Positions 879 through 37,130 of a stretch of DNA of 64,000 nucleotides are shown piece after piece. The DNA is from Octopus vulgaris (taxonomy: Eukaryota): NCBI GenBank assembly GCA_951406725.2, contig OX597831.1, positions 48,980,001 through 49,044,000 on the forward strand. The letters are read 5' to 3'. The notes beneath the pieces were generated by a model. The model ran no database searches. It was not told the origin of the DNA and worked only from the letters and a program-made list of their open reading frames with translations. The first letter of the stretch is position 1. Each line of letters opens with the position of its first letter. The position numbers and the translations under genes are program-made.

Positions 879-1042
879 ATACTTACCTGGTACAGGAGTA
901 AACCATGATCATCTAGGTGGTTCTCCCAAAGTGAGGCCCTTCCATTGCACTCCGGTTGGGTTGACCTTTGCGATCGCCCCAAATGTGGGCGACTCGGGTG
1001 CGCTATTTCTAAGTGTGGGGTCTGCGTTCGCGCTCACCCCGT
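879..1042 (+). ncRNA. RNU1: U1 snRNA (variant), copy 1
   Basis: Starts ATACTTACCTGG; loop II ATTGCACTCC (U1A site); CCCCAAATGTGGG stem III; terminal GGGGTCTGCGTTCGCGCTCACCCC hairpin; ~164 nt. Confidence 0.95.
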
Positions 1043-4646: not shown

Positions 4647-4810
4647 ATACTTACCTGGCACAGGAGTAAACCATGATCATCAAGGTGGTTCTCCCAAAGT
4701 GAGGCCCTTCCATTGCACTCCGGTTGGGTTGACCTTTGCGATCGCCCCAAATGTGGGCGACTCGGGTGCGCTATTTCTAAGTGTGGGGTCTGCGTTCGCG
4801 CTCACCCCGT
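4647..4810 (+). ncRNA. RNU1: U1 snRNA (variant), copy 2
   Basis: ATACTTACCTGGCACAGG...TTCGCGCTCACCCCGT; near-identical to copy 1. Confidence 0.95.
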
Positions 4811-6112: not shown

Positions 6113-6567
6113 TGCGAAGGGAGAGGTGGCGAATGAGTGACTCCTTTAGACACCGCACAGTCGCCTTACAATAAAAGCCAAAACATGGATAAATGAATAC
6201 GAGTGCCAGCAAGGAATAAGGAAGACGACACAACCGTAAAATGTTAAGTGAAAGGTTTTATTTATGTAGTAGCAGAGTGTGTCTCCGTGAGTGCGACATA
6301 AGTACATATATAATAAGAACAATAATAACAGACAGGCCGTCATGCATACAGTAATGTGTATGTGTGTACGAACAAGGGTGTATGCGTGTGGGACAAAATA
6401 TAGAGCATAGAAAGTGTTTACAATAGGACGCTAGATGAATGTTCAGACACAAGTTGGCGATGCTTCGGTATATGTACACACGTGACTTTGTTTACATTTC
6501 TGAAGATAACAGAAACCGACTGTGCGGTGTTTATAGGAGTCACTCATTCGCCACCTCTCCCTTCGCA
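6113..6567. mobile_element. MITE-like element with 51-bp terminal inverted repeats
   Basis: 6113-6163 and 6517-6567 are reverse complements with 2 mismatches; no recognisable protein inside. Confidence 0.75.
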
Positions 6568-8217: not shown

Positions 8218-8381
8218 ATGGGGTGAGCGCGAACGCAGACCCCACACTTAGAAATAGCGCACCCGAGTCGCCCACATTTGGGGCGATCGCAAAGGTCAAC
8301 CCAACCGGAGTGCAATGGAAGGGCCTCACTTTGGGAGAACCACCTAGATGATCATGGTTTACTCCTGTACCAGGTAAGTAT
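8218..8381 (-). ncRNA. RNU1: U1 snRNA (variant), copy 3
   Basis: Reverse complement of U1; + strand ends CCAGGTAAGTAT. Confidence 0.95.
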
Positions 8382-9909: not shown

Positions 9910-10073
9910 ACGGGGTGAGCGCGAACGCAGACCCCACACTTAGAAATAGCGCACCCGAGTCGCCCACATTTGGGGCGATCGCAAAGGTCAACCCAACCGG
10001 AGTGCAATGGAAGGGCCTCACTTTGGGAGAACCACCTAGATGATCATGGTTTACTCCTGTGCCAGGTAAGTAT
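9910..10073 (-). ncRNA. RNU1: U1 snRNA (variant), copy 4
   Basis: Reverse complement of U1; + strand ends CCAGGTAAGTAT. Confidence 0.95.
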
Positions 10074-10721
10074 GTCTTTTTGGCGTTCACAAATCTCATA
10101 TAAACGATATTTGCATTGTAACTTCACTGATATTGCCTCTAATATTACCTTGAAATATTAATTTTTCAGCAAATTTCATTATATTTATTATATCTCAACT
10201 ACTACAACTCATTATTTCTAATTCAATGGTTTAGTAAATTAATAGTTTAACTTCTTGAAATATTATAAAATTTAGAAATAATAGCCTTGTTTTATTCAAC
10301 ATTAAAGGCAAATGGACAAGGGAGATAATTCCAGTTTTATTTGAAAGTTTACTGATAAAGATATTTACTGTAATACATTTACTACACAAAACGAGCCAAC
10401 AAAAGAGTATCTTACATGATCGTTAAGCATGCTAGATATAACAGCAAAATCTTCCCCAAATTACACACAATGGTTTCTATTTTTTACAAAGAAAAAAAAA
10501 CTAACCAGCGCTGGTTGTCAAGCAGAGGTGGGGGCAAATCAAATAGAGTATACGCACTCGCGTGCGCACTTATATGATGTCTGTATATATACCAGTGTAT
10601 GTACGACCGATTGTTTGATGCCTGGAATAAGTCTGCTCTGGTTTCTCAGGACCATGCGTTTAAGAAATTTCGACTGCGGGCCATGCTACTCATGAAACGT
10701 TTTTGAGTTTGTTTCTGAGAA

Positions 10722-12110
10722 GTGAGACCAACGCGAAGCCGTCATGTTGGGCAGTGCGAGAGAAGACATGAAGACATATGCAGAGATCGCCAAAGCGCGG
10801 GAAACCGAGAATACATACAAGATATGGAATGTGATGTAGACAAGTTGAGGAAGTACAGCAAAATGGTGAAACAAGAAGGAATGAACATAAAATTTGTCAT
10901 GCCAGAAGAAGAGAAAAAGAAAGAGGAAAGAAAAACAGTCATTTTTAGAACATTTTCTAATGAGAACAAAAGGGTTGAGAGAGCCCCAGAAGATGAAATA
11001 GATCTAATAAGGGGCTGTATTGACGAGGAAATAATTTTTGTCACAAGAGGAAAATTTTACGAGACAGTGGCAGTAACATTTGGAACGGAAGAAGAGGCAG
11101 CACAGAACGTTAAAGACGTGATAGAAGGAGACAAATGGACACTATTACCACGCACACCAGGGAAGAAATTAGTAAGAATCAGAGTTGGGCGGATACCACC
11201 AATGATAGAGCCTGAGTGGGTGATAGTGGGCATTTTTGGCGAAAGACTTCAGAAAAAAAAACCCCAGATCTAAATCCCCAAAAATTAGTGAGCAAGACCG
11301 AATACTGCAATTTTTGGGGATTTAGTTTAGAAATTGTCGGAAATGTAAACCCAGAGTATTATGAGAAAATACCAGAAACAATAGAGCTGCCAACGGGAGA
11401 GAAGTTGGGAGATAATACTGATAAAAGATTCACTTAGTGAGCAAGACCGAATACTGCAATTTTTGGGGATTTAGTTTAGAAATTGTCGGAAATGTAAACC
11501 CAGAGTATTATGAGAAAATACCAGAAACAATAGAGCTGCCAACGGGAGAGAAGTTGGGAGATAATACTGACAGGAAGACCACCCAAATGTTACAAATGCG
11601 GCAAGAGAGGACATAAAATGAAGAAGTGTCTGGAGGAGGAGTATTTAAGATATGCAGAAATACCTTTTATGACACATAAAGAAAAACAGGTAGAGACAAA
11701 AAGCAGGAAAAGAGAAAGAAAGAAGTCTCCAACAACAGCAGAGATAAAGAGGAGTAAAGGAATGGAAGAGGAAATACAACAAAGAACGGAATATGTTGAG
11801 GAACCATCAACAGAGATACCCGTAACAGAGGTGGAATTACAAAGCGACAAGGAGGCTGAACGAAAATGCCTAGAGATGCATGAAAAAGACACACAGAAAG
11901 AGGATGAGAAAGTGCAGTCGGCAGAATGCACAGACATGCAAGGGTGTGAAAGCATACAGATGAAAGGACCACAGCGGAAAGTTGGATTGGAACAGCATGG
12001 AAACGGTAAAAAGAAATTGCAAAGTCCAGCCAGGCCATCGTGTAGCAGACGTGCGATACTAAGATATATAAGAGGAAAAATAAAACTGAAGAAATGGAGG
12101 AGTACCAAAT
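10722..12110 (+). pseudogene. Decayed Tx1-type ORF1 (gag-like, CCHC knuckle); its C-terminal part is mirrored at 1-405
   Basis: RIRVGRIPP motif; CYKCGKRGHKMKKC encoded from about 11588; frameshift and internal duplication. Confidence 0.7.
11285..11570 (+). repeat. 137-bp direct duplication (11285-11421, 11434-11570) with 12-bp spacer
   Basis: The two copies read as identical. Confidence 0.9.
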
Positions 12111-12523: not shown

Positions 12524-13476
12524 ATATGAATGTATGTATTTACGCACACATACACATCTCTCAACATGATAAAAACACGTTTATTGTAAAATGGAACGAG
12601 AATTGAGAATTTCCGTTTCATGAAATTTCTCTTTAAAAAAACTTACTAATAAATAAGTATTCGTTGTTTTCTGTTAATCTTTTATAAGTTACCATGTATC
12701 TATCTCTGTACCTGCCGGATCTTTTCAATCTCAGTCAATTAACTTTTTTTAACTAAACAGTTTGAAACTTCGGATACTGGTTGAATGTTTTATGTAGAAC
12801 ACGGTTTAGTCTTTACGTTTTTGACAAAATTTTGTATTTTAGAAGTCATTTCGTCTTGAAGTTGTATTTGGGTGATTTTAATCGAAGGAAGTTACTGCTG
12901 TTTGCGAAAGTAATCGAGCAACAACTTCCGGGTAATCTGTGGTAAATTCATTTTTCAACAGCGTGTGGTTTATTCCCTTAGTTGTTCACCTTGGCTGCTG
13001 TCTTTTGGATATTTTTCACCACTGTCTTATTTTTGCGTGTAATTATTTTCGCCACAGGCGCAGAGAATACTCAGTAAACCGAAGTGTGTAGACAAAGGAG
13101 GAGATCTGCAGAGTGTGTAATGACAGTAGAGAGACCAGAAATGGTTTGTTGATCTGTGCTGGTATCTCTCAAATGATGATAAATTGTGTACATAAGGAAT
13201 AGCGAGAATCAAAAGGATAACTTTATTCTTAATATGTTCTGGTATATTTGAATATTGAATATGCTAATCGATTACCATTTGGTAATTGTGATACTTGTAC
13301 AATTGAAGATAATTTTAATAAAGAATGTATTATGGTAGCTGATACTTGCCTGTTATTTTTTAACATCTCATCATGTATATTATTGTTTGTAGTTTATGTG
13401 TGACCCCAATCATGCTGTATTGTCCCCTCTATGTTGGCCCTTAATGTGTAATAAAAAATTTTAAAAATACTTGTCT

Positions 13477-15925: not shown

Positions 15926-16119
15926 ACTTCCTAATACAAAAAATAAAATACAACAGGCAAGTAAACAAAAGTAGATGAAAATTTTGTCAAAAACGTTAAG
16001 AGTAAACTGAATTCTACAAGACACATTCAACCAGTATCTGAAGTTTCAAACCGTTTAGTTAAATAAAATTAATTTTAAAATCTGTAACTGAGATTGAAAA
16101 GATCTCCAATTTCATTATA

Positions 16120-17510
16120 GTGGGGTGTTGGTCCTACTTAAAAGAGATCCAGTTTCAGAGAAAAAGTTAATTTTTTCTGACTCAGAGGGTAGGCTGGTCG
16201 TCTTGGATCTGACATTCAGTTGTGGTAAGGAGATCAGGCTGGTGGCGGTGTATGCACCTAGTTTACGTCAGACTGATTATTTTCGAGACCTAGAGAAATT
16301 TCTTGGTACGTCAAAATCCATAGTTATGTTAGGGGACTTTAACACTATTGTCAATGCGAGGGTTGATAGTGTTGGCTCGAACGAAGATAGGAAACCTAAC
16401 AGTGGCTTCCGGGATCTACTAAGTCGCTTTCAGCTAGTAGATCCCTACAGACTGGAATTCCCAGACGCTCAACTGTGGACGTGGTCAAATAGCGACGGGT
16501 CTTCCAAATCTTATATAAATAGGTTTTCTATTATAAAAATAGATAAAGACATAGTTAAGTGTCCACAGTTTCACTTGGTCAGTTACAGTGATCACAAGAT
16601 GGTCACTGGTAAACTGTACCTAGATAAGTTATGTAGTAAGGGAACCGGTTACTGGAAACTCAATAAGTCCTTTTTGGCGATTGAGGAGTACAGAAGCTGG
16701 ATTAAGTTACTAATTCAGAGGGCGTTAACCGGTTCCATTATTAACAACAAATAGTGGTTCGCCCTCAAAAGAGCCATAAAATATGAGTCCATTAGCTATA
16801 GAATAGGACTAGTAGCTAGAAGGCGTAAGGAAGAAAAGGGGCTAGTTAAGGCCTTAGAGGAAGCCATAAGATTTGGTGATGGGTCCCAAGTGAGGTTGAA
16901 GAGACTGGAATTAAACCAGCATCTCGAAACCAAACACATGAGTTGTATCATCAGAGCTAGACTTTGCGCAATGGGGAGCGAGGGGATTAAAGCTGCCGGA
17001 TGGGCACGAGTTGTGGAAGATCAACATGGAAACGATTCTACAATTTGGTCCGTTACGAACAAACAAGGCGTTTTGGTAAACGAACCTGAGGAGATGTGTC
17101 AAACTTTTCAGGAGCACTTTGCCCAGCTTTTCAGGGGTAGCGGTGGGCCAGATGAGAGGGTGGACCTTACGGACTTCCTCGACGGGCTGCTGCGCCTCTC
17201 AGGGCAGGATGCGGAGAGCTGTGAAGGGTCAATCAAGCCTGAGGAGGTGACTGAGGCCATAACTGACTGTGGCAGAGGTAAGGCGCCGGGACTATATGGT
17301 TTACCCTACAAGCTATATAAAAGTATGCCAGACTTGTTCGGGCCCGTACTGGCCAGCATTTTCGCGAACTGGCAGCAGAATGGGAGGATTCCTAGATCTG
17401 TACGCCGGGGAGTGGTGACGCTGATCACGAAGGACCTGGACAAGGAGGATAGAATAGATAACTTTAGGCTCATCACCTTGCTGAACGTGGAGGTGAAGAT
17501 TTTGGCCAAG
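16120..17510 (+). pseudogene. Tx1-clade ORF2 fragment (APE endonuclease to start of RT)
   Basis: GRLVVLD, VAVYAP, GDFN, SDH, GYWKLN, KAPGLYGLP, NFRLITLLNVEVKILAK. Confidence 0.85.
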
Positions 17511-17706
17511 GTGTTTCAGAATATTACCAACACAATCTTTTCCATTTTCTCCATACTGTTCTTTCCATAGAAACTCATCAAGGTACGAGTCCACCATGGT
17601 GGAATGTACCCCCATCATCATTTAAAATTTTCTTTTTGCATTCTTCCAGTAACGTTCCACAGAATTTGTGTGTACACCTGTTAGCGGATCCACAAAATTC
17701 CGGGAC
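17511..17706 (-). pseudogene. Merlin/ISXO2 transposase C-terminal fragment
   Basis: NFVDPLTGVHTNSVERYW...SYLDEFLW. Confidence 0.75.
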
Positions 17707-17889
17707 CACTCTGCGATACAAGTACCCGTTTCTTATACTCCAATAATGTTTTACTTCCTTTACATAATTGTTTCTTGAATGTATGTTTATATTTCAATGA
17801 AACAAGATATTACTTATACTGGGCATCAAACAACTAGTCATACTACACTGGTATAAATACAGATATCGTGTGTACATGCTGTATTTGCC

Positions 17890-18338
17890 CCCCCCCCCCA
17901 TTGACAACTGGTGCTGGCTACTTTTCATCTTTGTAAAAAAATAGAAACCATTGTGCGTAATTTGGGGGAAGATTTTGCTGTTATATCTAGCATGCCTAAC
18001 GATCATGTAAGATATTCTTTTGTTGGCTCGTTTTGTGTAGTAAATGTATTACAGTAAATACCTTTATCTGTAAACTTTCGAATGAAACTGGAATTGTCAC
18101 CTTTGTTCCTTTTGCCTTTACTGTTGTATTAAAAAAGGCGATAATTTTTAAATTTCATAATACTTAAAGAAATTTAAGCATTAAATTAACCACATCATTT
18201 AATTAGAAATAATTAGTTGTAATAGTTGAGCTATAATGTATATGATGATATTTAGAGAGAAATTAATATTTCAATGTAGTATTAGATGCGACATCAGTGA
18301 ACTTACAATGCAAATATTTTATATATGAGATTGGTGAA
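17890..18338 (+). promoter_or_regulatory. Orphan (fifth) U1 upstream flank with no U1 body
   Basis: Colinear with about 420-866 up to GAGATTGGTGAA; keeps ATCAGTGAACTTACAATGCAAATAT at 18293-18317. Confidence 0.85.
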
Positions 18339-18349
18339 GTCAGAACCTC

Positions 18350-21300
18350 AGTGTCGGTTGCTTTATTTTTGTTGCGCGTATATTTCAATTGGTGTCTATT
18401 TGTTAGTGTGAGTTCGTCTCTGTGTTTTTTGTGTCATTTGAACTGTTGTCTTGTGACATACAGTAATTTTCACCCTAAGGGGCAGAAAATTCCTGCATTT
18501 ATAATTATTTCTTGTCAGTTGCGACAAGGTTATTTATTTTTTGGATACGATGGAGTGTGACCTTGTGTCAAAAAAGGATTTTCCCCGAGATGGGAACAGT
18601 TAAAAATATCGGAAACGAAACGGTCAACAAGGACAAACAAAGCTTTTCAGCTGCAGTAGGTGGCAAAGTTATCGAACTGGAAGTAGTAATGGACAAGCTC
18701 TTCCAGTTCAGACAATACATTGTAAAAAAATGGCAAAGAGACTAAGCTGGTACCGCCCCTGGAAACTGTCCAGGCTATACGAGAGAAAACTGTCGTATAC
18801 AAGGTATTCAACATCAAGGAGAAGAAAATTGCAGAGGTGAAGAACGAAGTGGTGGGACGATGCATGGCTCCCATCTGGAACAAAGTACGCTATGTTAGCC
18901 GAGATGTGCGAAGTGCTACAGTTGAAGCGCAATTCGAGTCGGCTAACGTAGCAAAGGAGATATCCACGAAGACTCTCAAAAATGATGAAATTATGTTGTT
19001 ACCGACTTATTTAGGCCGGCGAACTGCTAAAATTAGTTGAGGACATACCTGCCGGTTATGATGTGATGTGGGTAGCAACAGCAGTCGTGTATGACATGGA
19101 AGCTAAGGTATTAATACTAAGCATGAGGATGAAAGAAGAGACGAACTGGAAGGGTCAGAGTTTGGAGATGGTTGTTCAAGGGGACAACAAAACCCTTGAA
19201 AGTTTGCCCGACAGGATCAATGTAGGGGAGGGACACACAATTCGTGTGTCGGTGGAGGGACGTAGGCCCAGATGCTTTAAGTGTGGGCAGAAAGGCCATG
19301 TTCGCTCTACTTGTACCAAAAAAAAAAACAACAGTTGAAGTCCCCCCCAAAAAAACTGCTGTGAGGCAGGAAAACGATGAAAACGAAAAGAAAAAACAAA
19401 TTGAAAAACAGAAGGAGGAGCAAAAAGAAAATGGAAGAAAGAATGAAGAACAGAAAAAAGAAGAGAAAAAACAAAAGGAAAGCGAACAGGTGGAATTTGT
19501 AACGGTGACGTACAAACGTAAAAAAGAAAGCACCCCAGACTCCCCTCCCCAAACAAAAAGAAAAACTGCAAGCACACATGAACAACAGCAAAAAATTCCC
19601 CAACCCCTCCCAGCTAACACTACCTTCGTAGGTCAGCATTTTAATAAACCCCATCCCCCTGTGTTAAAAGGTATAAAAAAATCGGAAAAAATTATATCGT
19701 TTAATGAGAAGAACAAGAGAGTTTTAAGACTAATCAAGGCTAATAGCCGCATGAAAATTCTTAAAATAACTGGAGGCGAGCCCGACGCGCGATATGCAAA
19801 AGTCGGAGAGGAGGAGTTTAAAGGAAAGCTCCTCCAGGAACATTTGGTAAACAAAAACATCAGATGTTACCCAGGAGGCAATAGCTGGGAAGTTAATCAT
19901 CAGCCCGGCAGCCACTCCTAACCAGAGACCAGTGGTAACGCCGGTGAAAAGCCCAGCAGCCTCGGGGAGTGAGAGGGAAGCTGGCAGACATAAACTGCCA
20001 TGACCCCTCTCTCAACCATAAATAATTTATTTTCTTTTACTCAATGATTAAGTTAGGTTGTTTGAATGTGCGTGGAATGGGGTCGAGATAGAAACAAGCT
20101 TGTTTTCTGAACGACCTCATGACACGGAATAGATGTTATTGTAACCGAGTCCAAGATGAGTGGACCTCAAGCGTTCTTGCCTCTTCTGTGTGGTTACGAG
20201 AAATTTATTTCTCCTAGCCGAGGAGGGGGAAGGGGTGTGGCAGTCTTTATCAGGAAGAGCTTGGACTTACAGATAAGTACCCTCTTTCTGGACCCAAAAG
20301 GCAAGCTGGTTGTACTAGATGTGACTCACGTGAGTAAACAGTCCTTCAGGTTGGTAGCTGCCCACGCTCCTGAGAAGTGTAGGCAGTCTGGTTTTTACCG
20401 GAACCTGGAGCACTTTCTGGTGACGTCTAAAACGTTAGTTTTGGTAGGGGACTTCAACACAGTTTTGGTAGGGGACTTCAACACTATCCTCAATGCGCGG
20501 GTCGATAGTGTGGGCTCAACTGATAGGAAAGGGAATCCTTGCCTCAAGGGTCTACTAGAGAGCTATAATCTAGTAGACCATTACTGACTGGATGAGCCGA
20601 ACGTTCCACAGTAGACATGGAGTAACAACGACGGCTCACACAGATCGTACCTAGATAGGGTATTCATTAAGGAAAGAGGTAAGAATAGAGTTAGTTGTCC
20701 ACGGATCACAAACTTGTGACGTGTGAGGTACACACAGATAAATGTCATAGATAGGGACTCGGATAGTGGAAAATGAACAAGTCTATTATGACTTGTGAAG
20801 CTTTCCGTACCTGGATTACGGAGTTAGTTCAGAGGGCATTATGTGGTACCATCATTAACAATAGATGGTGGTACACCTTCAACAGAGCCATTCGTTCAGA
20901 GTCCATTAGATTTAGCAAGCAGCTAAGTTTAGATAGGACTAGAATAGAGGGCGATTTAGTTAAGAACTTAGATGAGACAATGGAATCTGGCTCTACATCT
21001 AGAGTGTTGGTGGTGAGAACAGTCTTGTGCCGCCACCTCAACGCCAAGCATGAAAGCTGCAGAGTCAGAGCCAAGCTACGCGCAGGGAAATGAGAAGGTT
21101 GGAGAGGTTGGGAGGCAATCCTAATGAAATTGGATGCGGTAAGTCTGTTTCTGCCTATGCTGATGACGTCACCTTCATCGTGTCCAACGAAGCACAGCTA
21201 CCTCGTGTAGAAGGTGCTCTCCGAGGATACGAAGCGGTGGCAGGGGCAAAAGTTAACAAGGACAAGTCCACCGGTTTGGGCCTTGGAACCTGGAGGAACA

Positions 21301-22713
21301 AGCCGATATCGTCCAGTGTTGTTGGACACTGGACAGATGGTCCTGTTAAATTGCTTGGAGTTTGGTTTGGTTCAGATTCCCAGACGGAGAAAAATTGGAG
21401 CGAGGTAGTGAACAAGGTAGAAGCATTAGTACGGAAGTTGTCCGGAAGGCATCTTTCCTTGAAAGGGAGGGCGGAGGCATTACAGGTGTTTATAGCATCC
21501 GTCATCACCTACCACCTGACCGTCGTGCCTTGCCCCAATTTGTGGCTAAGCAAGTTGGAACGACTCCTTTTCTGCTTTTTGTGGAAGGGAGGAAAGCCAC
21601 TTGTAAGGCGCTCCGTGTGTTGCCAGGAACCGCTAAAGGGTGGGCTGGGGATGCCTTGGCTAATGATGTGTAGGCATGCGTTGAGGCTGAGACATCTCTG
21701 GTGCCACCAGGAGGGTGATAAGGTGTGTAGTCCACTGGCAGAGGAATTCTTCCCGCGACCGGACGCTTTGGAGAGATTTAAACCCGGTTTCATTAAAAGA
21801 CGGAACCTGACTTTATGACAGAAGGAGTGCCAACAGGCACTCTGGCTGATCCACAAGATGGGCAAGGCCGGCAGCGGGAATACCACCTCGGTGTTCTATA
21901 AAGGGCTGGTAGAGGCAAAAGATGACGACGTCCTAGGAGGGGCTCTGGGGTTCGATGAGAATCAACTCTCCAACCTGTTAAGAAGACTTTCAGGCTGGGG
22001 TATTTGGATAATTATCAAAAATCCCTGACTTGGCAGTGCTATAGGAATGCCTTACCTGTTCATGGTAAGTTATTTAGGTACAGAATGTCAGTGCCACCGC
22101 CGTGTCCAAGATGTGGGTTGGACGATGAAACCGTTCAACACGCGTTTGTACATTGTCGGGAGCTGTCAAGCTTGATAAGTTACGTAGAACACGTGTTGTC
22201 GCATCTGGGACGAGTACAGCTGTCAGCTGGTTCTATAATAAAGATGATACCGCCAACTGGACTCTAAAAGGAAGGTGAGGCTTGTTTTCACTGTACGGTT
22301 GCTGTACTGAAAGAGTGTGTGTGGAGAACCAGAATGGAAGGTTTTGTGACAGGGTGCTTTGTCTCTGGCCCCGGTCTGTTAAACTACTTCAGATTTCATC
22401 TGAAGAGCAAGATGGAGTTGGAGAGGAGGAACCTGCCACAGAAAGAGTATGTGAAATGTTGGAAGGATGTGATAAGAAAGGTGGGTGTGAGTAACCCAGC
22501 TTAATCATCAATGAAAGGAGAAAATAGTTGCCGGGTAAAAGTCTGTACTGTTCTATACTTACCTGGCTAATTAAAAAAAAAAAATTTAAAGTGTAGTATT
22601 ATATTATTCTAAATTTTTAAATACCATACGAACTACATAACTTTTTTGTAATTGTGTTTTGTCCTGTAGTGTCCTATCTTTGTATCGATTTTTATGATCA
22701 TAATAAAGATTTT
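18350..22713 (+). mobile_element. Tx1-clade LINE copy A (5'UTR, ORF1 ~18550-20018, internally deleted ORF2 20044-22503, 3'UTR)
   Basis: CFKCGQKGHVRSTC knuckle; APE motifs; SAYADDVT; CPRC..ETVQHAFVHC; ends AATAAAGATTTT. Confidence 0.9.
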
Positions 22714-22728
22714 ATACTAACCTGTCAC

Positions 22729-25350
22729 TTGTCTTGGGAATCCTTTTTCATCTGCGAATCAAGAAATTGGCTGCCTATTTTTGTTAAGTGAGTTCGTTTT
22801 TTGCTCATTGTTGTTTTGTGTTTCACACGTTAATTTGAACTATTGTCCGTTGTGTGACAATTTTCGCCCTACAGGGCTGAAAATTCTGTTTATGAACATT
22901 TTTATTACCTTTGTGGTAATTTTTGGAAAATTTGTTAAAACTTGTTTCTTGTCGTAATTTGACAAATGGAATTCGATTTAACGTCGAAAAAAGACTTCCC
23001 TGTGATGGGAAAAGGCAAACATAATAAGGATGTCGAGTTTTGAAAACAGTCTTTTTTGGCCGCAGTGGGCGGAACCGTAACTGAAGTGGAATTCAAAATA
23101 GAACAGTTGTTTGAATACCGGAACTTGGTCAAAAAGGAAGGCAACGAAATAAAACTTGTACCGCCGCAAGTGATATTACAAGAGATAAAGGCCAAGACAG
23201 TTGTGTACAAGGTGTACAGTATCAAGGAGAAAAAAATAAGGTGTTGAATAAAATTCGCTACATCAGTCGAGGTGCCACCGTTGAAGCACATTTCGACTTG
23301 GCTGATGTGGCAAAGGAGATTTCGTCAATGACTTTAAAAAATGAGGATATTATGTTATTACCCACCTATATGGGCAAAAGAACAGTAAAACTTTATGTGG
23401 AAGATATACCTAGAGGATACAATGTAATGTGGGCAGCAGCAGCGGTTCTGCATGACAGAGCAGAAAGTCTCAATTCTGCAGATGAAAAGGAAAGAGGTAA
23501 ACTGGAAGGGACAAGCACTCGAGCTCCTCGTTCAAGCCGAGAATAATGTACTGGAAAACCTGCCCGATTGGCTATTTATTGATGAGCGACTTTCAATGAG
23601 AGTAGCAGTGGAGGGGCGGAAACCCAAGTGTTTCAAATGTGGTGAAAAGGGTCACGTCTGCTCCAACTGCGTAAAAAAAAGAAAATCAGTGAAGCCCCTC
23701 CTCAAAGTGCTTCAAATACAGAAAAAGAGGAGGGGAAAAAGGATCCCAAGACTGCAACAAGGGATAAAACCGGAACAGAAGAAAAGCAAGATAAAACGCA
23801 AGAACCAATGAATTTCACACAAGTAACATACAAAAGAAAAAAAGAAAATACCCTGGACTCCCCACCCCAAACAAAGAAAAAAACAGCAAACACTGCAGAG
23901 ACACATCCAAAACAAATTCCCCAGTCCTATCCCCAAGGCACTGTGTTTGTTGGAACACAGTTCGCCAAGCCCCACCCCATAAAACAAGATCCGAAAAAAT
24001 TGTTAAAAAAAGAATGAAAGAATTGTGGCATTCGATGAGAGGAACAATAGAGTGTTCAAACACTTCAAATTCTCAAAACTTAAGTTATTTAGCAAGTCTG
24101 CAGACACCAAGTCAACCACTCGTTTTGCTAAAATAAAGACGAGTGGAAAGAGAAAACTTTTCAAGAACATTTGAAAAATAATTACATTAGAGATGTAAGT
24201 AACGAAATACTGGAGGGCAAACTAACTATAACCCCGGCAACCACACCTACCCAGAGATGTGGCAACGCCGGTTAAGAGCCCTGCAGTTACGACCATAAGG
24301 GAGGAAGAAGAGGAAGCATGCAGACTCAAACTGCCATGCTCCCTGTCCCAATCATAAGTAAAATTTTTTTTCTCCGTCAATGGTCAAGTTGTGAATGTGC
24401 ATGGAATGGGGTTGAAATGGAAACAAATTTGTTTCCTGCATGACCTCACGACACGCGGAGTGGATGTGGCTAAATGAGTCCAAGATGAGCGGGGCCCAAG
24501 CGTTCTCGCCTCTTCTGAATGGTTTCGAGAAATTTATTTCTCCTAGCCAAGGAAGAGGAAGGGGTGTGGCAGTCCTTATCAGGAAGAGCTTGGACTTGCA
24601 GGTAAGTACTATCTTTCTGGACTCAGAAGGTAGGCTGGTCGTTCTGGATGTGACACATGTAAGTAACAGTCCTTCAGGTTGGTGGCTGTCTATGCTCCTA
24701 ACGAGTGTGGGCAGTTGGGTTTTTTTGGGGACCTGGAGCACTTTTTAGCGACGTCGAAAATGGTAGTTTTGGTAGGGGACTTTAACACTATCCTCGATGT
24801 ACGGATCAATAGTGTTGGTTCCACTGATAGGAAGGGGAATCCTAGCCTCAAAGGTCTACTAGAGAGCTTTAATCGAGTAGACCATTACTGACTGGATGAG
24901 CTGAATGTTCCACAGTGGACGTGGAGTAACAATGACAGTTCAAAAAGATTGTATATAGATAGGGTACTCATTAGGAAAAGAGATAAGGATATGTTTAGTT
25001 GTCCAGTTTCACATTGTGCCTTCAACGGATCACAAATTTGTGACTTGTGAGGTGCAATTAGATAAGTGTCATAGACAGGGACCCTCGAAGGGTAGAGCGG
25101 AGGTGGTGCAGGTGTTTATAGCATCTGTAATCACCTACCGCCTGTTTGTTGTACCTGCCCCGATTTTTGTCTAAACAAGCTGGTACGACTCTTCCACTTT
25201 TTGTGGAGAGGGGGAAAGCCACTTGTGAGGTGCCCCGTGTGCTCTCAGGAATCACTAAAGGTGGCTTGGGGATACCATGGCTAATGATGCACAGACATGC
25301 ATTGAGGCTGACACATCTCTGGTGCCACCTGGAGGGTGATAAGGTGTGGA
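22729..25350 (+). mobile_element. Tx1 copy B (5'UTR, ORF1, APE, deleted ORF2)
   Basis: CFKCGEKGHVCSNC; APE motifs; 5'UTR hairpin shared with copies A and F. Confidence 0.85.
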
Positions 25351-26380
25351 GCCAACAAAAGGAAAAAATCCAACACCCCGGACTCCCCACCCCAAACAAA
25401 AAGAAAAATAAATGCAGACGAACAACACAAAAAAATTTTCCAAACCCACCCTGCTGGTACTACGTTTGTAGGACAGCATTTCATTAAACTCCAACCCCCA
25501 ACTTTAAAAGGTTTTAAAAAAACAGATAAGTGTATAGCATATAATGCGAAAAATGAGAGAGTGGTGTGGTTTATAAAAGCAAGATCTCACATCAAATGTT
25601 TTAAAACCACAAAAAAAGACCCTGAATGGAAATACGCAACGGTCGGCGAGGAAGAGAGACTCTTCCAACTGCATGTGAAGGACAATCTCATCAAAGATGT
25701 CACCCAGGAGGTGATGGCTGGGAAAGTGCACATCAGCCCGGCAGCCACTCCATCCCAGAGCCCGGTGGCAACGCCGGTGAAATGCCCAGCAACAACGGAG
25801 AGTGTGGGGGAGGCAGGCAGACATAAGCTGCCATGCTCCCTCTCACAACCGTAAGTAGAAAACTTTCTTCTTTCATTGATGATTAAGTTGGGCTGTATAA
25901 ATATGCGTGGAATGGGGTCGAAATGGAAACAGGCCTGTTTGCTGAACGACCTCACGACACACAGAATAGATGTAGCCATTGTCACCGAGGCCAAGATGAG
26001 AGGACTACAAGCGTTCTCGCCTCTTCTGAATGGTTACGAGAAATTTATTTCTCCTAGCCGAGGAGGAAGTGCAGGCGTGGCAGTCCTTATCAGGAAGAAC
26101 TTGGACTTACAGGTAAGTACTGTCTTTCTGGAACCAGAAGGCAGGATGGTTGTACTAGATGTGACTCATATGAGTAAACAGTCCTTCAGGTTGGTAGCTG
26201 TCCATGCCCCTAAGGAATGTAGGCAGTCTGGTTTTTACCGGGACCTGGAGCACTTTCTATTGGCGTCTAAAACGTTAGTTTTGGTAGGGGACATCAATAC
26301 TATCCTTGATGCACGGGTCGATAGTGTGGGCTCAACTGATAGGAAAGAGAATCCTTGCCTCAAGGGTCTACTAAGATAGA
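25351..26380 (+). mobile_element. Tx1 copy C fragment (ORF1 C-terminus and APE)
   Basis: TPDSPP..LPCSLSQP stop, then MIKLGCINMRG. Confidence 0.85.
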
Positions 26381-28675
26381 ACCACCACCAGAAACATTAA
26401 ATGCTATCCGCGAAAAAATTGTAGTGTACAAAATTTACAATTTAAAGGAAAAAAAATCAGTGATGTAAAATACGAAGTAATCAAAAGGTGCTTGGCACTG
26501 ATATGGGGAAAAATACATTACGTTAGCTGAGGAGTGAGAAGTGCAACAATTGAAGCTCATTTCAACTCGGCTAGTGTAGCAAAGGAAGTTTCAACGCAAA
26601 CGTTGAAAAACGAACTAATTATGCTGCTGCCCACTTACTTGGACCGCAGAACGGCTAAAATAACAGTCGAAGACATTCCAGTCGGTTTTGACATGATGCG
26701 AGTGGCTGTGATTTTCGACGTGGAGCAGAAGATAACGATATTGAGCATGAAGAAAAAAGAACCGGACAATTGGAAGGGACAAATTCTTGAAATGGTCGTC
26801 CAAGCGGAAAATTCAACACTTGAAAATTTGCCAGATAGGGTTTTCGTGGGGGAGGGGCACACCATCCGTGTAGCGGTGGAGGGACGTAGGCCTAGGTGCG
26901 TCAAGTGCGGGCAAAAGGGCCACGTTCGCTCTGCCTGTATTAAGAAAAAAACGGGTGACGCCCTTCCTCCAAGTGCTGTGAAAATCACAGAAGATAAAAA
27001 ATAAAACTGTAATGACTAAAGAAACCAAAGGAAAGAAACAAAGCGAAAACGAAAAGGAGGAAAATAAAGAAAAACAAAAAGGAGAGGAAGATAAACAAAC
27101 AGAATCTGAAGAAATGGAGTATACAACTGTCACAAATAAAAGGAAGAAAACTCATACCCTGGACTCTCCACCCTAAACAAAAAAGAAAAATAATACAGAT
27201 GAACAAAATAAAAAAAAAATTCCCCAATGGCACTACTTTAATTGGCCAGCGATTCACCATACCCCACCCTCCAACATTCAAAGGTCTTAAAAAAACGGAC
27301 AGAATAGTTATGTACAATGTGAAAAACAAGAAGGTGATTCATTTAATCAAAGCCCACCTGCGTATAAAATCTTTTAAAAGTGCTGACAACGAAACTGATT
27401 TTCGTTACGCGAAGGTCGGTGAGGAGGAGTGGAGAGAGAAGCTCCTCCAAGACCACATAAAAGAGAACCAAATAAGAGACGTTACACAGGATGTGATAGC
27501 TGGCAAACTAATCATCAACCCGGCAGCCACTCCTACCCAGAGCCCGGTGGCAAGCCCAAGAAAGAGCCCAGCTGAAGCGGAAAGCGTGAGGGAAGCTGGC
27601 AAACAAAAAGTGCCATGCTCCCTCTCACAACCGTAAGTGACTTCTTTTATTTTTTTCTATGATTAAATTGGGTAGTTTGAATGTGCGTGGAATGGGGTCG
27701 AAATGGAAACAGGCTTGTTTGCTGGACGGCCTCATTTCACATAGAAGAGATGTGGCTGTGATCACTGAGTCCAAGATGAGGGGACCTGAAGCGTTCTCAC
27801 CCCTCCTCAATGAGAGGCTGGATGCTGTGAGGGCCCAATCACTCCCGCAGAGGTAACAGAGGTGCTGGTCGAATGCGCAGGAGAAAAGTCTCTGGGACTG
27901 GATGGTCTGCCATACGAGTTTTATCATTCAATGCCGGACATGTTTGGAGAATTTATATCCAGTGTCTATGCAAACTGACAGCAGAACAGGAGAATTCCCA
28001 GTACAGTGAGACGGGGAGTTGTGATGCTGGTCCAGAAAAACCCAAGCAAGGGGGATAATATCAGTAACTACAGGCCCATAACTCTACTTAATGTAGAGTT
28101 AAAGATTTTGGTCAAGGTGTTAGCAAAAAGGTTGACGGTTGTCATGGAGAAGCTTGTCGGGAAGGCACAGACTTGTGCAATCCCAGGCAGGTCGATCCAG
28201 GACTAACTTCATCTTCTCCACTACACCTTAGAGAGGGCAAAGGAGGAGGGGCATTGATGCACTTGGACCAGAGTAAAGCATTCGATACGATAGACCACCG
28301 GTACCTGGGGTCAGTCCTCGATGTGGTTGGGCTAGGCCCTGGTTTTCGCGGGTGGATCGCCACAATGTATAGTGGCATCAAGTCCACCTTCCAGATAAAC
28401 GGTAACCTAACGGAGCCGTTTTCAATTAAGCGGTCTGTTCGTCAAGGGTGCCCCTTGTCTCTGATACTGTATGTTTTGACCCTGGAGCCATTGCTGAAGA
28501 GGCTGGAGAAGTTAGGTGGCAACCCTAATGAGATTGGATGTGGTAGGTTCACTACTGCTTATGCGGACGACGTTACTCATCGTGTCTAAAGAAGCACAAC
28601 TACTTTGTGTAGAAGATGCTCTCCAAAGATACAAAGCGGTAGCAGGGGCAAAAGTTAACAAGGACAAGTCCATTG
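26381..28675 (+). mobile_element. Tx1 copy D fragment (ORF1, deleted ORF2 with RT core)
   Basis: CVKCGQKGHVRSAC; NYRPITLLN, DQSKAFD, VRQGCPLS, AYADD. Confidence 0.85.
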
Positions 28676-30975: not shown

Positions 30976-30992
30976 ATACTTACCTGGCACAG
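30976..30992 (+). other. U1 5'-end 17-mer at a Tx1-Tx1 junction (degenerate equivalent at 22714-22728)
   Basis: ATACTTACCTGGCACAG is identical to nt 1-17 of U1 copies 2 and 4. Confidence 0.85.
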
Positions 30993-33900
30993 ATTTTTCC
31001 TCGGATTACGTCGGATTATTTTACGCTGAAAGCTGTTATGTTAGTTCGTTCTGTTCTGGATTTACACGTACAATTTTTGGATTATTAACTTGTGGAACAA
31101 AGTAATTTTCACCCTTCGGGGTAGAAAATTTCTTTTTATATATGAACTATTAACTCAGTGTGGAATTAACTTTTATCTTGTCACTTGGATTTCAATATGG
31201 ATCTTGACTTAACGTCAAATTCTGATTTTCCCGAGATGGGAGAAGTTATAAATAATGGAAAGCAAAAGGATACAAAGGAGAAACAAAGTTTTTCGGAAGC
31301 CATTGGAGGCAATGTTATAGAACTGGAAGTAGCAATGGGGGATCTCTTTCAGTTCAGAAAGTTAATACAAAGGTATGGAGAAGAAACAAGATTTATACCG
31401 CCCCCTGAAACTTTACAAGCAATCCGTGAGAAGACGGTAATTTACAAAGTATATAACATTAAGGAAAAAAAATAGCGGATGTAAAAAATGAATTGGTAGA
31501 ACGGTGTATGGCGCCAATTTGGAACAAGGTTCGCTATGTTGGCCGAGGAGTGAGAAGTGCTACGATTGAAGTGCATTTCGAGTTGGCTAGCATAGCGAAG
31601 GAAATTTCAACTCAAACGTTGAAAAGTGTAGACATCCTGTTGCTGCCCACGTACTTAGACCGCAGAACAGCTAAGGTAACAATAGAGGATATACCAACAG
31701 GTTACGATGTAATGTGGGCAGCAACAACATTCATATTCGACGTAGAGGAGAAATTGAACATTTTAAACATGAGGATGAAAGAGGCAAAATTTTGGAAAGG
31801 CCAGCAGCTTGAAATGATCGTTCAAGCAGACAATGCAACGCTGGAGAGCTTGCCAGACAGGGTCTTCGTGGGGGATGGACACTATGCGGATATCAGTGGA
31901 GGGACGTAGGCCCAGATGTTTCAAATGTGGGCAGAAGGGTCACGTTCGTCCAGAGTGCAAAAAGAAAAAACCCGTTAATGCCCCCCTTCAAATGGCTGTG
32001 GAGAACAAAGCAGACATCACAGCAACAACAAAAGAGAACACCCGGAAAAAGCAAAATGAAAGTCAAAAGGAGGAAAAGAAAATGAATGGAAAACAAAACG
32101 AAAACGAATAGGAGGTGGAAAATGATTTATCAAATAGAAAAGAACTGGAAGTAATGGAATATACGACTGTAACCAACAAAAGGAAGAAATCCAATACCCC
32201 GGACTCCCCACCCCAAACAAAAAGAAAAACAAACGCAGAATAACAAAAAAATTATCCAATCCCACCCCGCTGGCACTACTTTTGTAGGCCAGCATTTCAT
32301 TAAACCCCAGCCCCCAACTTTAAAAGGATTCAAAAAAACAGATAGGTGCATTGCTTATAATGCAAAAAACGAGAGAGTAGTTTGGTTCATAAAGGCGAAA
32401 TTAAACAAAATGTTTCAAATCATCGGAAAAAGACCTGAATTAGAGGTATGCGAAGGTTGGAGAGGAGGAGTGGAAGGAGAGACCCTTCCGACTACACGTG
32501 AAGGACAACCTGATTAAAGATGTCACACAAGAGGTGATAGCTGGAAAATTGAATATTAGCCCAGCAGCCACACCAACCCAGAGCCCGGCAGCAACGCCGG
32601 TTAAATGTCCAGCAACAACGGAGAGTGTGGGGGAGGCAGGCAGACATAAGTTGCCATGCTCCCTCTCACAACCATAAGTAACAAACTTTCTTCATTCATC
32701 GATGATTAAGTTGGGCTGTATAAATGTGCGTGGAATGGGGTCGAAATGGAAACAGGCTTGTTTGCTGAACGACCTCATGACGCACAGAATAGATGTAGCC
32801 ATTGTCACCGAGTCCAAGATGAGAGGAACCCAAGCGCTCTCGCATCTTCTCAATGGTTACGAGAAATTTATTTCTCCTAGCCGAGGAGGAAGTGCAGGCG
32901 TGGCAGTCCTTATCAGGAAGGACTTGGACTTGCAGGTAAGTACTGTCTTTCTGGACCCAGAAGGTAGGCTGGTTGTCCTCGATGTAACTCACGTGAGTAA
33001 GCATTTCTTCAGGTTGGTAGCTGTTTATGCTCTTAATGAGGGTAGGCAGACTGGTTTTTATCGGAACTTGGAGCACTTTCTAGTGACGTCTAAAACGGTA
33101 GTATTGGTAGGGGATTTCAACACTATCATCGATGCGTGGATCGATAGTGTGGGCTCGTCTGTTTTTTGACGTCGGTTGTGTTTTTTTACGCTCTGTAAAA
33201 TTCGGTAAAAAAGAAAAAAGAACAAAAAGTGAATTGTTGTTGTTGTCGTGGAATTTGAACGTCGGTTGGTGCGGTTTTGCGTCGCACTGGTTCTGTGTGT
33301 CGCACTGTTTCTGTTTGGGAGGCCGTTTTTCGGTCTGAGGCAACTATGAGCCGCCTCTACCAAACGGATGAGATGGAAGGGAGAAATTTCTCTGAAATTT
33401 CGTCGACATCTGAGGAGGAGTTGGAGAGAGCGGTGGAAAAGATGGAAAGCACCTACGCAGGAATAACGAAGAAGTCAACAGAAAAAGAGATAGACCTGGC
33501 TAAGTTGCCGGGCTTCCATGAGTTTATGAAGGAGGAGGAGAACGGAGAGGTCGAGCTGTTGCCTCCAGCAGGGCGCGGAGACTGGTTCAATCGTAGAACC
33601 ATTAAATATAAAGTATATATGAATGGAGGAAGAAAAATGGAAGTGATTAATATGGAAGCAATTGAAGAGGCTCTGAAGCAGACAGGAGAGGAAATCGTGT
33701 ACATGACAAGAGGATTAGAATATGGAACTATAATGGCACAATTTAGAAGCGAGAAAGTTGCCAGGAATATAGCAGCCAAGGTGGTGAGGACGGAAAAAAT
33801 TCACTTGTTCCCCTCGTATTTAAATAGCAGGACCACCAGAATTAGGGTGGAGGGAATACCTCCACACCTAGAGGGCGAATTTATAACGGCTGCGGTAATC

Positions 33901-36332
33901 AAAGGAAACGAAGATAAAGTGGACATCCTCCACGCCATTATGAAATATGAAGGCGTGAGAGGTGCCACATTAGAAATGAACATACAGACGGAGGCGGAAG
34001 TAATAGAAAAGCTGACGGACAGTATAAAAACTGGGAATATTATTATGAGAGTGTGGGTGGAGGGTAGGGCGCCCAGGTGCTATAAGTGTGGCCTGAGGGG
34101 TCACATAAGAGCCTACTGCCCTCCCCCACCAAAGGAAAAGGAAATCGCGGCGGAAGCCCCAAAAGAGGAAGAAACTAAAGAGAACCAAACAGAAAAGGAA
34201 ACGACAGAAGAGGAGATGCAGCAAGAGTGGGAAGAAGGCAGAAAGAGAAAAAGAAAAACTGTGCGAAGCCCCAACCCACCCCAACACCACCCACACCCTT
34301 GGAGTCCCATCCTTCCCCTGCAAACAGTGATTCCACCCACTCCCCGCCTACAAGAAAAACAAAAACAGACACACAGAACAAAGAAAGTCCCAAGACCCAC
34401 TTTTTATGTGTTATAAATGGGAAAGTCACACAAAACGCAAAAGGGGTGTTAAGCAATTGGTACGAACATGAAGATTGTAATTACACGGCTGTGGATGGTG
34501 ATGATATGGGCTTATTGGTGAGAAGGTTTGAGGAAGAGGGTGTGTGTTGGAAGTCAGTGCAAATGAAGGATGAATTGATAGAGAGGGCTGAAAGAAAAAT
34601 GAACGTTGTGATAGGTAAGCAAGGAATGCTAATTGGAAATGGGTGAAAGGACAGGTAAATGATGCTGACGGATGGGGCCGTTGGCATCGCTTTCATATAT
34701 CATTTTGCCCATATATATGTAATTGTGATGTTCTATGTCCCCAATGTTTGTAACGTCCCCTCTATGTAGCCCCTAGTGGGTAATAAAAAATCACTGATAG
34801 AAGAGGGAATCCTTGCCTCAAGGGTCGACTGACGAGCTTTAATCTAGTAGATCGGTTTCGAATGGATGAGCCGAGCATTCCACAGTGGACGTGGAGTAAC
34901 AATGATGGCTCACGCAGATCGTATATAGATAGGGTATTTGTTAAAGAACGAGATAGGAATAGTATTAGCTGTCCACAATTTTGTATTGTGCCTTACACGG
35001 ATCACAAACTAGTGACGTGTGAGGTACATGTAGATAGATGCCATAGACAGGGACCCGGGTACTGGAAAATGAACAAGTCTATTTTGGCTTGTGAAGCTTT
35101 CCGTAACCAGATTATGGAATTAGTCCAGAGGGCATTATGTTGAACCATCATTAATAATAGATGGTGGATCGCCCTCAAAAGAGCCATCCGTTTGGAGTCC
35201 ATTAGATTTAGCAAGCAGCTAGTTTAGATAGGACTAGAATAGAGGGCGAATTAGTTAAGAACTTAGACGAGGCAATGGAATCTGGCTGTACATCTGGATT
35301 GTTGGCAGCGAGAACGGTCTTGTACCATCACCTCAGCACCAAGCATGAGGGGTGTAGAGTCAGAGCTAAGCTACATGCAGGGAAACGAGAAGGTATTAAC
35401 GATGCCGGATGGGCCCGTCGTGAGGAGAGTCAGAAGGGCAAAAAGTCCTCTATTAAGTCTTTAACTGACGAACAGGGTCGCAAAATCTATGGACAGGAGG
35501 AGATGCAGAAGGTCTTTCACCAGCATTTCGCCCGGTTGTTTGGGGATGGCAGGTCTTAAAGGACTTCCTAGCCAGTGGGCCTCGATTCTCGGCATGTGAG
35601 GTGGAATGTTGTGAAGGATCGATCACTCCCATGGAGGTAAGAGAGGTTTTGGCCAAATGCGCCGGGGCTGGATGGTCTGCCCTATGAGTTCTATTGTTGT
35701 ATGCCGCACTGGTTCAGGGATATACTGGCAGGCGTCTATGCAAGCTGGCAACAGAATGGGAGGATCCCCAGTTCTGTGAGCCAGGGAGTTGTGATGCTGG
35801 TCCAGAAAGACCCGAGCAAGGGGTATAGTATTAGTAATTATAGGCCCATAACTCTACTTAATGTAGAGTTAAAGATTTTGGCCAAGGTGTTAGTAAAAAG
35901 GCTTACAGCTGTCGTGGAGAAACTTGTCAGGAAGGCACAGACATGTGCAATCCTAGGTTGGTCGATCGAGGATAATCTTCACCTTCTCCGCTACACTATA
36001 GACAGGTCTTAAAGGTCTGTTCGCGATAAGTTATCTAGGCACGGAATGTCAGTGCCACCAACGTGTCCAAGATGTGGGTTGGATGATGAAACCGTTCAAC
36101 ACGCTTTTGTACATTGTCGGGAGCTGTCAAGCTTGATAAGTTACGTAGAACACGTGTTGTCGCATCTGGGACGAGTACAGCTGTCAGCTGGATCTATGAT
36201 AAAGATGATACCGCCAACTGGACTCGCAAAGGAAGGTGAGGCTTGTTTTCACTGTACGGTGGCAGTACTGAAAGAGTGTGTGTAGAGAACCAGAATGGAA
36301 GGTTTGGTGACAGGATCCTTTGTCTCTGGCTC
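30993..36332 (+). mobile_element. Tx1 copy F (5'UTR, ORF1 ~31197-32676, ORF2 from 32702, interrupted)
   Basis: CFKCGQKGHVRPEC; APE split by an insertion; start of RT; C-terminal zinc finger. Confidence 0.85.
33157..34790 (+). mobile_element. ORF1-only non-autonomous retroelement inserted in the copy F endonuclease
   Basis: Host sequence GGGCTC|..ACTGATAG is split; ORF from ATG 33346 with CYKCGLRGHIRAYC, one apparent frameshift, stop 34646; ends AATAAAAAA; no ORF2. Confidence 0.8.
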
Positions 36333-36334
36333 AG

Positions 36335-37130
36335 TCTAAAGCTGACTCCCCCAGAAGAACTGTTGAAAAGCTTAGCGAAGAGGACAGTAGTATACAGAAC
36401 GTTGTCTACGTCCTCAAACAAAATAGAGTTAGCCCCAACAGAAGAAATACAGGAATCCCTCGTGAATTTTAACAACTGACCACATTCTATACGTGGAAAA
36501 AAGTATGGCTCAGTGGAAGTAATGTTTGGCAACGAAGATGCCATAAACCAATCCACAGACCTGTTACGGACAACGAAATGGATACTACTTCTGACGTACT
36601 GTGGCAAATGCGTTGCCAGAGTGAGAGTTGGAAGAGTGCCCCCCCAAAATCAAGGAAGAATGGTTGGTAGCAGCTATAATGCACAATATGAAGGATGGGG
36701 TAGAGATCCTCAAGATAACGAGGACCCCAAAGGCCAATTGGTGGGGATATAGCCTCAAAGTGACTATGTAGGTATCTTTGGAAGACTTGCATAGGTGTAC
36801 AGAAGAAAGGTGAGGAATTGCAGCTGAATAGATATACAGACAAGCAAGAATGCGAAAAAATACAGACAGTCGAATTACAGTGGAGAGGAAAACTAGAAGG
36901 GAATGGAAGACGGAAAAAACATCAAGGGAAACAGAAACATGAAGAAAAACAAAACGAGATAGGACGAAAAAAGGTAAGTACGATAAATTTGCAGAAAAAC
37001 AACGGGAAAAAAAAGAACATGAACATTGTAAATTATGTTAAACAAAAAGAAAATAATGAAAAAAGAACTGATGAATGGACAAGTATTTAGAGTTATAAAA
37101 AAAAAAAGAAAAAAGTTTAATTTTCTGTGG
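36335..37130 (+). pseudogene. Decayed Tx1-type ORF1 fragment of a different subfamily
   Basis: RGKKYGSVEV, ARVRVGRVPP, then a K/E-rich tract. Confidence 0.55.

Follow-up and report, generated by a model that had tools for sequence, protein, structure and literature searches.

A tandem LINE array in Octopus vulgaris starts at +1 of a U1 snRNA promoter region that has no U1 body, and carries U1 5' ends between its copies

The 64,000-nt stretch of the Octopus vulgaris genome analyzed here (the window; assembly GCA_951406725.2, contig OX597831.1, forward-strand positions 48,980,001 to 49,044,000) holds a cluster of genes for U1 small nuclear RNA (snRNA) and, beyond it, a tandem array of decayed long interspersed nuclear elements (LINEs) of the L1/Tx1 type that begins at the position of a U1 transcription start. 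The four U1 genes of the window all lie before 10100: copy 1 at 879..1042 and copy 2 at 4647..4810 on the + strand, copy 3 at 8218..8381 and copy 4 at 9910..10073 on the - strand. Each matches Rfam RF00003, and they agree with one another at 161-163 of 164 nt. Further along, at 17799..18338 (+), is an orphan U1 upstream flank, a promoter region without its U1 body, which BLAST aligns with the flank of copy 4 (10645-10086) at 80% identity over 564 nt. From 16.1 to 52.8 kb the window contains many fragments of one LINE group, with 24 of the 25 tblastn matches of open reading frame 2 (ORF2) of a full-length relative on the + strand.

The orphan flank leads to a precise boundary. Over its last 400 nt it shares 83.1-85.9% identity with the four U1 flanks, against 92.4-97.5% among those four, and its final 75 nt align to them without gaps up to 18350, the -1 position. 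The earlier note on this stretch had reported a proximal block at 18293-18317 and, from the spacing at U1 copy 1, a +1 at about 18351, and both observations hold. The 25-nt block (18293..18317, +; -58..-34) occurs five times in the window (821, 4589, 8439 and 10131, the latter two on the - strand, and 18293) and in none of 100 shuffles; in its 25 nt the orphan block has a single departure from those of the U1 copies. In copies 1 and 2 the block begins 58 nt ahead of U1 +1, which puts the orphan equivalent at 18351, a G where the U1 genes have A. The LINE starts at this same base: the first base of copy B of the array (22729) stands in ungapped register with it, with 23 of 42 matches vs 7-15 of 42 at 16 other offsets, and the alignment of the two 5' untranslated regions (UTRs) outscores 500 of 500 shuffles. 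Homology to the U1 flank had been said to stop some 12 nt short of the LINE; the alignment is in fact gap-free to -1, but positions -12..-1 (18339..18350, +) match at 3-4 of 12 and -5..-1 at none, which may be either a junction scar or decay. As the note had also stated, no U1 body follows: Rfam finds no U1 and no other snRNA in 10200-64000 at E<=1. A candidate 5-nt duplication remnant at this junction was discarded, with p = 0.21 by shuffling and 781 of 7600 background 12-mers scoring equally.

By its position the block would be the proximal sequence element (PSE), which in vertebrates lies ~60 bp upstream (PMC4494074). Its conservation is ordinary, as 91 of 540 25-column intervals of the orphan/U1 flank alignment equal it, most of them 285-425 nt upstream, and the best-conserved section of the orphan flank is -425..-285. 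At the flank background rate, the probability of at most one mismatch in 25 is 0.07. We therefore set aside, as unsupported, the idea of a selectively retained PSE. The octamer ATGCAAAT lies within the block, at 18307-18314; the vertebrate octamer is part of the distal element.

Six copies, A, B, C, C2, D and E, fill 18351-36340 head to tail, and all copies in the array are broken. Copy A (18351..22713, +) runs from U1 +1 through its 5' UTR to a 3' UTR that ends in AATAAA plus 6 nt. Its ORF1, from about 18552, is split into at least five frame fragments, and its ORF2, from 20045 to a stop at 22504, has a large internal deletion that removes residues 129-442, with a 912-aa relative as reference; copy A is thus unable to retrotranspose. 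Copies B (22729-25351), C (25352-26373), C2 (26374-28678) and D (28674-30975) follow on the + strand, internally deleted. Copy E (30993..36340, +) has a complete 5' UTR and lacks its 3' end; nested within its endonuclease region is element F (33158-34791, +), an ORF1-only element with a 385-aa open frame and its own AATAAA end, to which a 3' end at 13401-13459 is related. Copy A is 69-83% identical to the other copies across most of its length, and copies A, B and E are 69-75% identical to each other. Most copies are 65-90% alike and so are not collapsed duplicates. One patch is closer, with 93.6% identity between A 22056-22369 and E 36017-36330 against 72-82% elsewhere, and this suggests conversion or recombination between copies.

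Between the copies lie pieces of U1. U1 nt 1-15 (22714..22728, +; 13 of 15 matching) separates the 3' end of copy A from the 5' end of copy B, and U1 nt 1-17 (30976..30992, +; 17 of 17) separates a remnant 3' terminus of copy D from the 5' end of copy E. Three copies in the window, A, B and E, have an intact 5' UTR, marked by a common hairpin, and all three start either at the promoter +1 (A) or directly after U1 nt 1-15 (B) or 1-17 (E). The 3' boundary is fixed as well, as expected of snRNA targeting: both of the surviving 3' termini of copies A-E share their final 10 nt, which in copy A take in the end of the AATAAA, and pass directly into U1 nt 1. The three remaining junctions between copies link the interior of one copy to the interior of the next, and look like deletions. 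The junction at 18351 is therefore real and not a one-off deletion, which the earlier note had named as part of what would refute its idea. The comparison with other full-length copies that it proposed has a mixed outcome; all three with an intact 5' UTR are tied to the U1 start, but the exact joint of promoter and 5' UTR does not recur, as a U1 piece intervenes in two of the three.

The U1 matches are far more frequent in the array than chance allows. With up to two mismatches, U1(1-15) occurs three times in the array, always on the + strand, and nowhere else in 10701-64000, whereas over 300 shuffles the mean count is 0.04 and the highest is 1. The expected number of exact U1 17-mers in the array is 7.5e-7. 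Among 150 U1 15-mers, 6 match the array, 5 of which overlap the U1 5' end. No U2 match was found by Rfam in the window, and the stubs derive from U1. The third match is of a different kind. It lies in the 3' UTR of copy A as the 3' arm (22555-22567, equal to U1 nt 1-13) of a hairpin (22525..22573, +) whose 5' arm resembles a 5' splice site. The stem continues for 5 bp past the U1 match, and both junction stubs track U1 past nt 13, where this arm diverges; we thus did not count the 13-mer as a third duplication, and the hairpin is probably a component of the element. Its fold by itself is not significant, as the 99-nt segment scores z = -1.1 and 26 of 200 shuffles do equally well; the entire copy A 3' UTR gives z = -2.35.

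The reading we favor, and consider probable though far from certain, is that a non-LTR (non-long-terminal-repeat) lineage of the L1/Tx1 type has the U1 start as its insertion site, makes a target duplication of 15-17 nt and stacks in tandem. From the positions above we infer the cut sites, the order of events and the loss of the U1 body. The endonuclease would nick the bottom strand at U1 -1/+1, and a second nick, usually 15-17 nt downstream, would duplicate U1 nt 1-15 or 1-17. Further rounds of insertion at the regenerated site would then line up copies head to tail on one strand, with a U1 stub separating each from the next. Copy A would have gone in without a duplication, by a blunt or level cut with a few bases replaced, leaving its 5' end on +1 behind the promoter, and later deletions would have erased three of the junctions, trimmed every copy internally or at its ends, and removed the U1 body along with the 3' end of copy E. 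A single nick rule would account for the three complete 5' ends as well as the two 3' ends that survive, and U2-targeting Utopia offers a precedent for such a pattern (below). As the other two complete 5' ends, those of copies B and E, follow U1 nt 1-15 and 1-17, the lineage is tied to the U1 start, and with an identity of only 69-75% among A, B and E, several sublineages share that tie. A cut at U1 +1 also explains where copy A lies, so neither promoter capture nor selection for promoter use is needed for its position.

The domain content agrees with this classification. A CCHC knuckle (C-x2-C-x4-H-x4-C) lies in the copy A ORF1 fragment at 19015-19338, with only a weak Pfam zf-CCHC match, in element G (below). 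Window fragments of ORF2 carry PF03372, the apurinic/apyrimidinic endonuclease (APE) domain, and PF00078, the reverse transcriptase (RT) domain, and the relatives carry PF03372, PF00078 and PF13966, a C-terminal zinc region; for one relative, P0016, the best match of solved structure is L1 ORF2p (E 9e-69). The group thus has the marks of L1/Tx1 elements, namely an ORF1 bearing a CCHC knuckle and, downstream of it, an ORF2 that joins APE and RT domains to a C-terminal zinc region, and the label 'Tx1', used in the note, fits this architecture, although the protein searches for relatives returned no named Tx1 reference (Tx1L, Keno, Kibi, Koshi) among their matches. Of the relatives with a name, a protein of Argonauta hians is nearest, at 56% identity; a Sepia protein is more distant.

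A scan for relatives in prokaryote genome contigs gave 43 loci (L001-L043), 38 of them in contigs that are labelled as bacterial metagenome-assembled genomes (MAGs) and are packed with this LINE group. In an RT tree the window copies group with the Argonauta protein (100/99), separate from the 5S-flanked loci L039 and L040. L001-L037 and L043, on contigs CAXXMW01, form their sister clade (100/100, in a tree whose columns are filled to just 30-40% in the window rows). Most of the DNA of these contigs is a two-ORF LINE stacked head to tail with a period of ~6.4-6.9 kb, and they resemble animal DNA that was mis-binned; at L016 the copies are largely intact and near-identical. Sister 3' UTRs are conserved and 5' UTRs vary by subfamily. 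The U1-start 12-mer occurs in 2 of the 43 loci, on the - strand inside the element, and Rfam, run on 14 of the 43, finds no U1 and only a 5S rRNA in L039. L039 (4422-4534) and the 3' end of L040, distant relatives at 30-32% amino acid identity, have poly(A) followed by 5S rRNA, a Mutsu-type target; both records are labelled as bacterial MAGs, and the 5S was called by Rfam in L039 and by eye in L040.

Several observations weigh against targeting of the U1 start. The junction stubs number two, at a single locus, and copy A has none. The sister arrays have no U1 stub at any of 45 3' ends (overlapping loci, not all independent), and as they stack without stubs, tandem stacking alone is no evidence for U1 targeting. 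Nor do the LINE fragments at 38-53 kb carry a U1 piece, and a member of the LINE clade lies at 16098-17522, upstream of the orphan flank. Targeting predicts a U1 body downstream of the array, and Rfam finds none in 10200-64000; the last stub-linked copy, E, has itself lost its 3' end. With the match at 22555 read as a hairpin arm, the lineage can carry U1-like letters of its own. Finally, the first 90 nt of copy E do not align significantly with copy A (61 of 500 shuffles score equally), and copy E is anchored by its 5' UTR hairpin and by BLAST from 31076. That hairpin (18465..18491, +, in copy A; motif starts at 18467, 22861 and 31106) is common to the three complete copies and has little covariation support because its core pairs are invariant. 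A 5'-terminal motif common to A, E and F was rejected as not significant, 57-124 of 500 shuffles being as good.

The idea of the earlier note, that the LINE is transcribed from the snRNA promoter, can be added to targeting: as a regular step of the life cycle the U1 promoter would drive the promoter-proximal copy, giving either RNA from +1 or a U1(1-15/17)-LINE RNA. The U1 leader would then pair with the target to make the 5' junction, in the way that co-transcription with ribosomal DNA (rDNA) serves R2. Under targeting the first copy of an array sits behind an snRNA promoter, so co-transcription would be a natural by-product that could feed the cycle through the U1 leader. Copy A lies on +1 behind a gap-free flank, copies B and E would carry a U1 leader, and a 3'-box-like motif that stands downstream of all four U1 genes first recurs on the + strand at 34361, its only + occurrence in the array. 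From the AATAAA of copy A it is 21 nt to where the 15-nt stub ends, a usual cleavage distance. In addition, Kojima proposes flank-driven transcription for SINEU, citing R2 (PMC4494074). However, a cut at +1 yields the same geometry, the orphan flank has decayed by about 15% without sparing the block, and its +1 is G instead of the U1 A. All window copies are broken, and the conserved motifs common to the three 5' UTRs could be an internal promoter. Human snRNA genes use the little elongation complex (PMC5493778). We regard use of the promoter as possible but on balance doubtful. Transcription through the whole array, which the note had thought possible without a 3' box, is less likely than promoter use itself: T runs occur in copy A at 18366, 18425 and 18537, at 22702 it has an AATAAA of its own, human snRNA transcription stops also without Integrator, often at T runs (PMC7610016), and in Caenorhabditis elegans read-through appears upon Integrator loss (PMC6390993). 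The SNAPc passages of a cephalopod genome paper (PMC13652810) hold nothing on snRNA promoters.

Alternatively, U1 may never have been a target. The elements would stack on their own ends, the U1 5' ends would come from template jumping during reverse transcription, and copy A would have reached +1 by a chance deletion. Crocodilian Tx1-Mar families have U1 heads ascribed to a template switch (PMC4494074), and U1 +1 is a natural RNA end, so that a jump would also produce an exact +1 boundary. The sister elements form pure arrays, and in 40 of 40 a 5'-splice-site-like motif after the ORF2 stop could bind U1. The annotation of Octopus vulgaris names, besides 80 L1-Tx1 families, a single 'U-L1' family on which it gives no detail (PMC13282606). 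This explanation needs two separate coincidences, the placement of copy A on the +1 of a U1 promoter (~3 positions in ~650, a rough estimate) and the location of the array within a U1 cluster, and the sister arrays have no U1 heads (0 of 45, overlapping loci). We think it unlikely, but it would leave an ordinary decayed LINE cluster with U1 heads.

Targeting of U1 might instead be aimed at +15/+17 within the gene, or be guided by proteins on the promoter in the style of TRE5-A and Tf1, and be independent of the sequence at +1 (protein-guided targeting is described in PMC3706591), with copy A having lost its stub by deletion. Copies B and E do start after nt 15 and 17. Copy A on +1 would nevertheless require deletions that sum to exactly 15 nt, the remnant test at its junction was negative (p = 0.21), and both 3' boundaries are exact at +1; we consider this version improbable. 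A possible parallel case, which counts also toward the reading that we favor, would suit it, as recognition of promoter-bound factors would give the order 'snRNA 1-15, then element' on a different sequence. At 10636..12030 (+), a U5-like 12-mer is followed by an ORF1 element, G, whose ORF1 matches that of element F (E 1e-14; F matches copy A with E 6e-20). The 12-mer (10636-10647) equals nt 4-15 of a U5 start printed as a primer in a vertebrate study (PMC2064619), with nt 1-3 different; noticed post hoc, it is unique in the window, with 0.007 expected, and the flank common to U1 copy 4 and the orphan has its far-side end at 10646. Rfam finds no U5, truncated or otherwise, in the 49-nt stretch 10600-10648, and the homologous position in the orphan (~17800-17812, - strand) matches U5 less well. 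A PSE-like copy at 10591 was rejected, as its 10 of 14 matches are equalled at 70 window sites. The U5 side of a head-to-head U5/U1 unit may also have been hit by an element, which we note as a lead; the legend to Fig. 3 of PMC4494074 gives U5 as a Tx1 target.

Chance or artefact, with a one-off deletion at 18351 in a deletion-prone region and U1 matches that are noise or reverse-strand splice sites (the element has splice-site-like 10-mers complementary to U1), is largely refuted and very improbable: the 17-mer is longer than any splice-site complement and has an expectation of 7.5e-7, no shuffle gives two U1(1-15) matches, and the 65-90% identity of most copies is not that of collapsed duplicates.

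Other short motifs in the element relate to U1. A perfect 10-nt complement of U1 nt 2-11 occurs in the endonuclease region of four copies (24599, 26110, 30360 and 32933, +), which may reflect shared ancestry or codon constraint. The sister motif mentioned above is GTRAGT, directly after the ORF2 stop in the 40 anchored copies among L001-L043; at 22530-22543 of copy A, an arm that resembles it is paired with the U1-identical arm. Five window copies also have TAAGT where their ORF1 ends. No Rfam ribozyme matches the window and only a simple hairpin is common to the 5' ends, although no dedicated ribozyme search was made. More speculatively, and with more doubt than conviction, one could imagine a cephalopod LINE clade specialized on Pol II snRNA transcription starts (U1, perhaps U5), which would cut at +1, be driven by the promoter with a short U1 leader, use U1 letters at both ends of its RNA to pair with the next target, and tune U1 binding or elongation with its U1-complementary sites and anti-splice-site hairpin.

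The surroundings are repetitive. The U1 cluster consists of inverted duplications (406-1327 with 10545-9625, and 4086-6131 with 8941-6867). In all four U1 genes the Sm site deviates from the Rfam consensus (UAUUUCUAAG vs UAAUUUgUGG), and they may represent a variant U1 class. Between U1 copies 1 and 2 is an unrelated LINE ORF with RT and endonuclease (2459-4375, -; 638 aa open). At 17516-17798 (-), a broken transposase fragment, which from its motifs we take to resemble Merlin/IS1595, separates the upstream LINE piece from the orphan flank. The distal LINE fragments are interrupted at 39.3-48.4 kb and 49.0-52.0 kb, presumably by a Helitron-like element and a Penelope-like RT element; the fragments at 48553-49019 and 52049-52541 are continuous in element coordinates.

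If targeting of the U1 start is correct, a non-LTR element aimed at this site would represent both a new target and a new geometry, since the cut would separate the promoter from its gene and pass it to the element. It would also put to a direct test an open issue from PMC4494074, the means by which retroelements linked to snRNA are transcribed when no promoter is known for them, and provide a natural APE endonuclease specific to a short conserved site. In the Creative Commons literature of PMC and bioRxiv, we found no U1-targeting non-LTR element. The passage of a 2015 study that lists snRNA-targeting elements names only Keno and Utopia (U2), Dada-U1 and Dada-U6 (PMC4640811), and PMC4494074 takes the same target in over 20% of flanks as its criterion for snRNA targeting.

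The nearest known systems each share part of this arrangement. Keno, of the Tx1 clade, is likewise an APE-type non-LTR element whose site within a Pol II snRNA gene is fixed (PMC4494074, PMC4640811); it shares the site of Utopia, with U2 resuming at nt 39, whereas the array described here is at U1 and its boundary is the transcription start. Utopia, also in U2, has precise 3' and variable 5' boundaries, duplications of 0 or 20 bp and occasional tandem insertion (PMC4640811), but uses a restriction-like endonuclease (RLE) and an internal site. Dada-U1A/B_DR inserts in tandem in U1 genes with its copies separated by a duplication (PMC3706591; further details in PMC8869645), yet it is a DDE DNA transposon that makes a 6-bp duplication at another U1 sequence. 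In crocodilian Tx1-Mar and SINEU-2 a Tx1 element has sequence from U1 at its 5' end, and tandem SINEU-3 copies sandwich a duplication (PMC4494074); Tx1-Mar and SINEU-2 target, however, a Mariner family, and their heads are put down to a template switch, while here copies B and E are preceded by 15-17 nt of U1 and copy A by none, in an array that extends from a U1 promoter. The CAXXMW01 sister arrays have the same two ORFs and head-to-tail stacking, but their copies are largely intact and near-identical (L016), with no U1 stub at 45 3' ends. R2 in 28S rDNA, as cited in PMC4494074, offers the analogy for co-transcription from a host promoter, which the position of the array fits; R2 itself belongs to a Pol I unit and has an RLE enzyme and a self-cleaving ribozyme.

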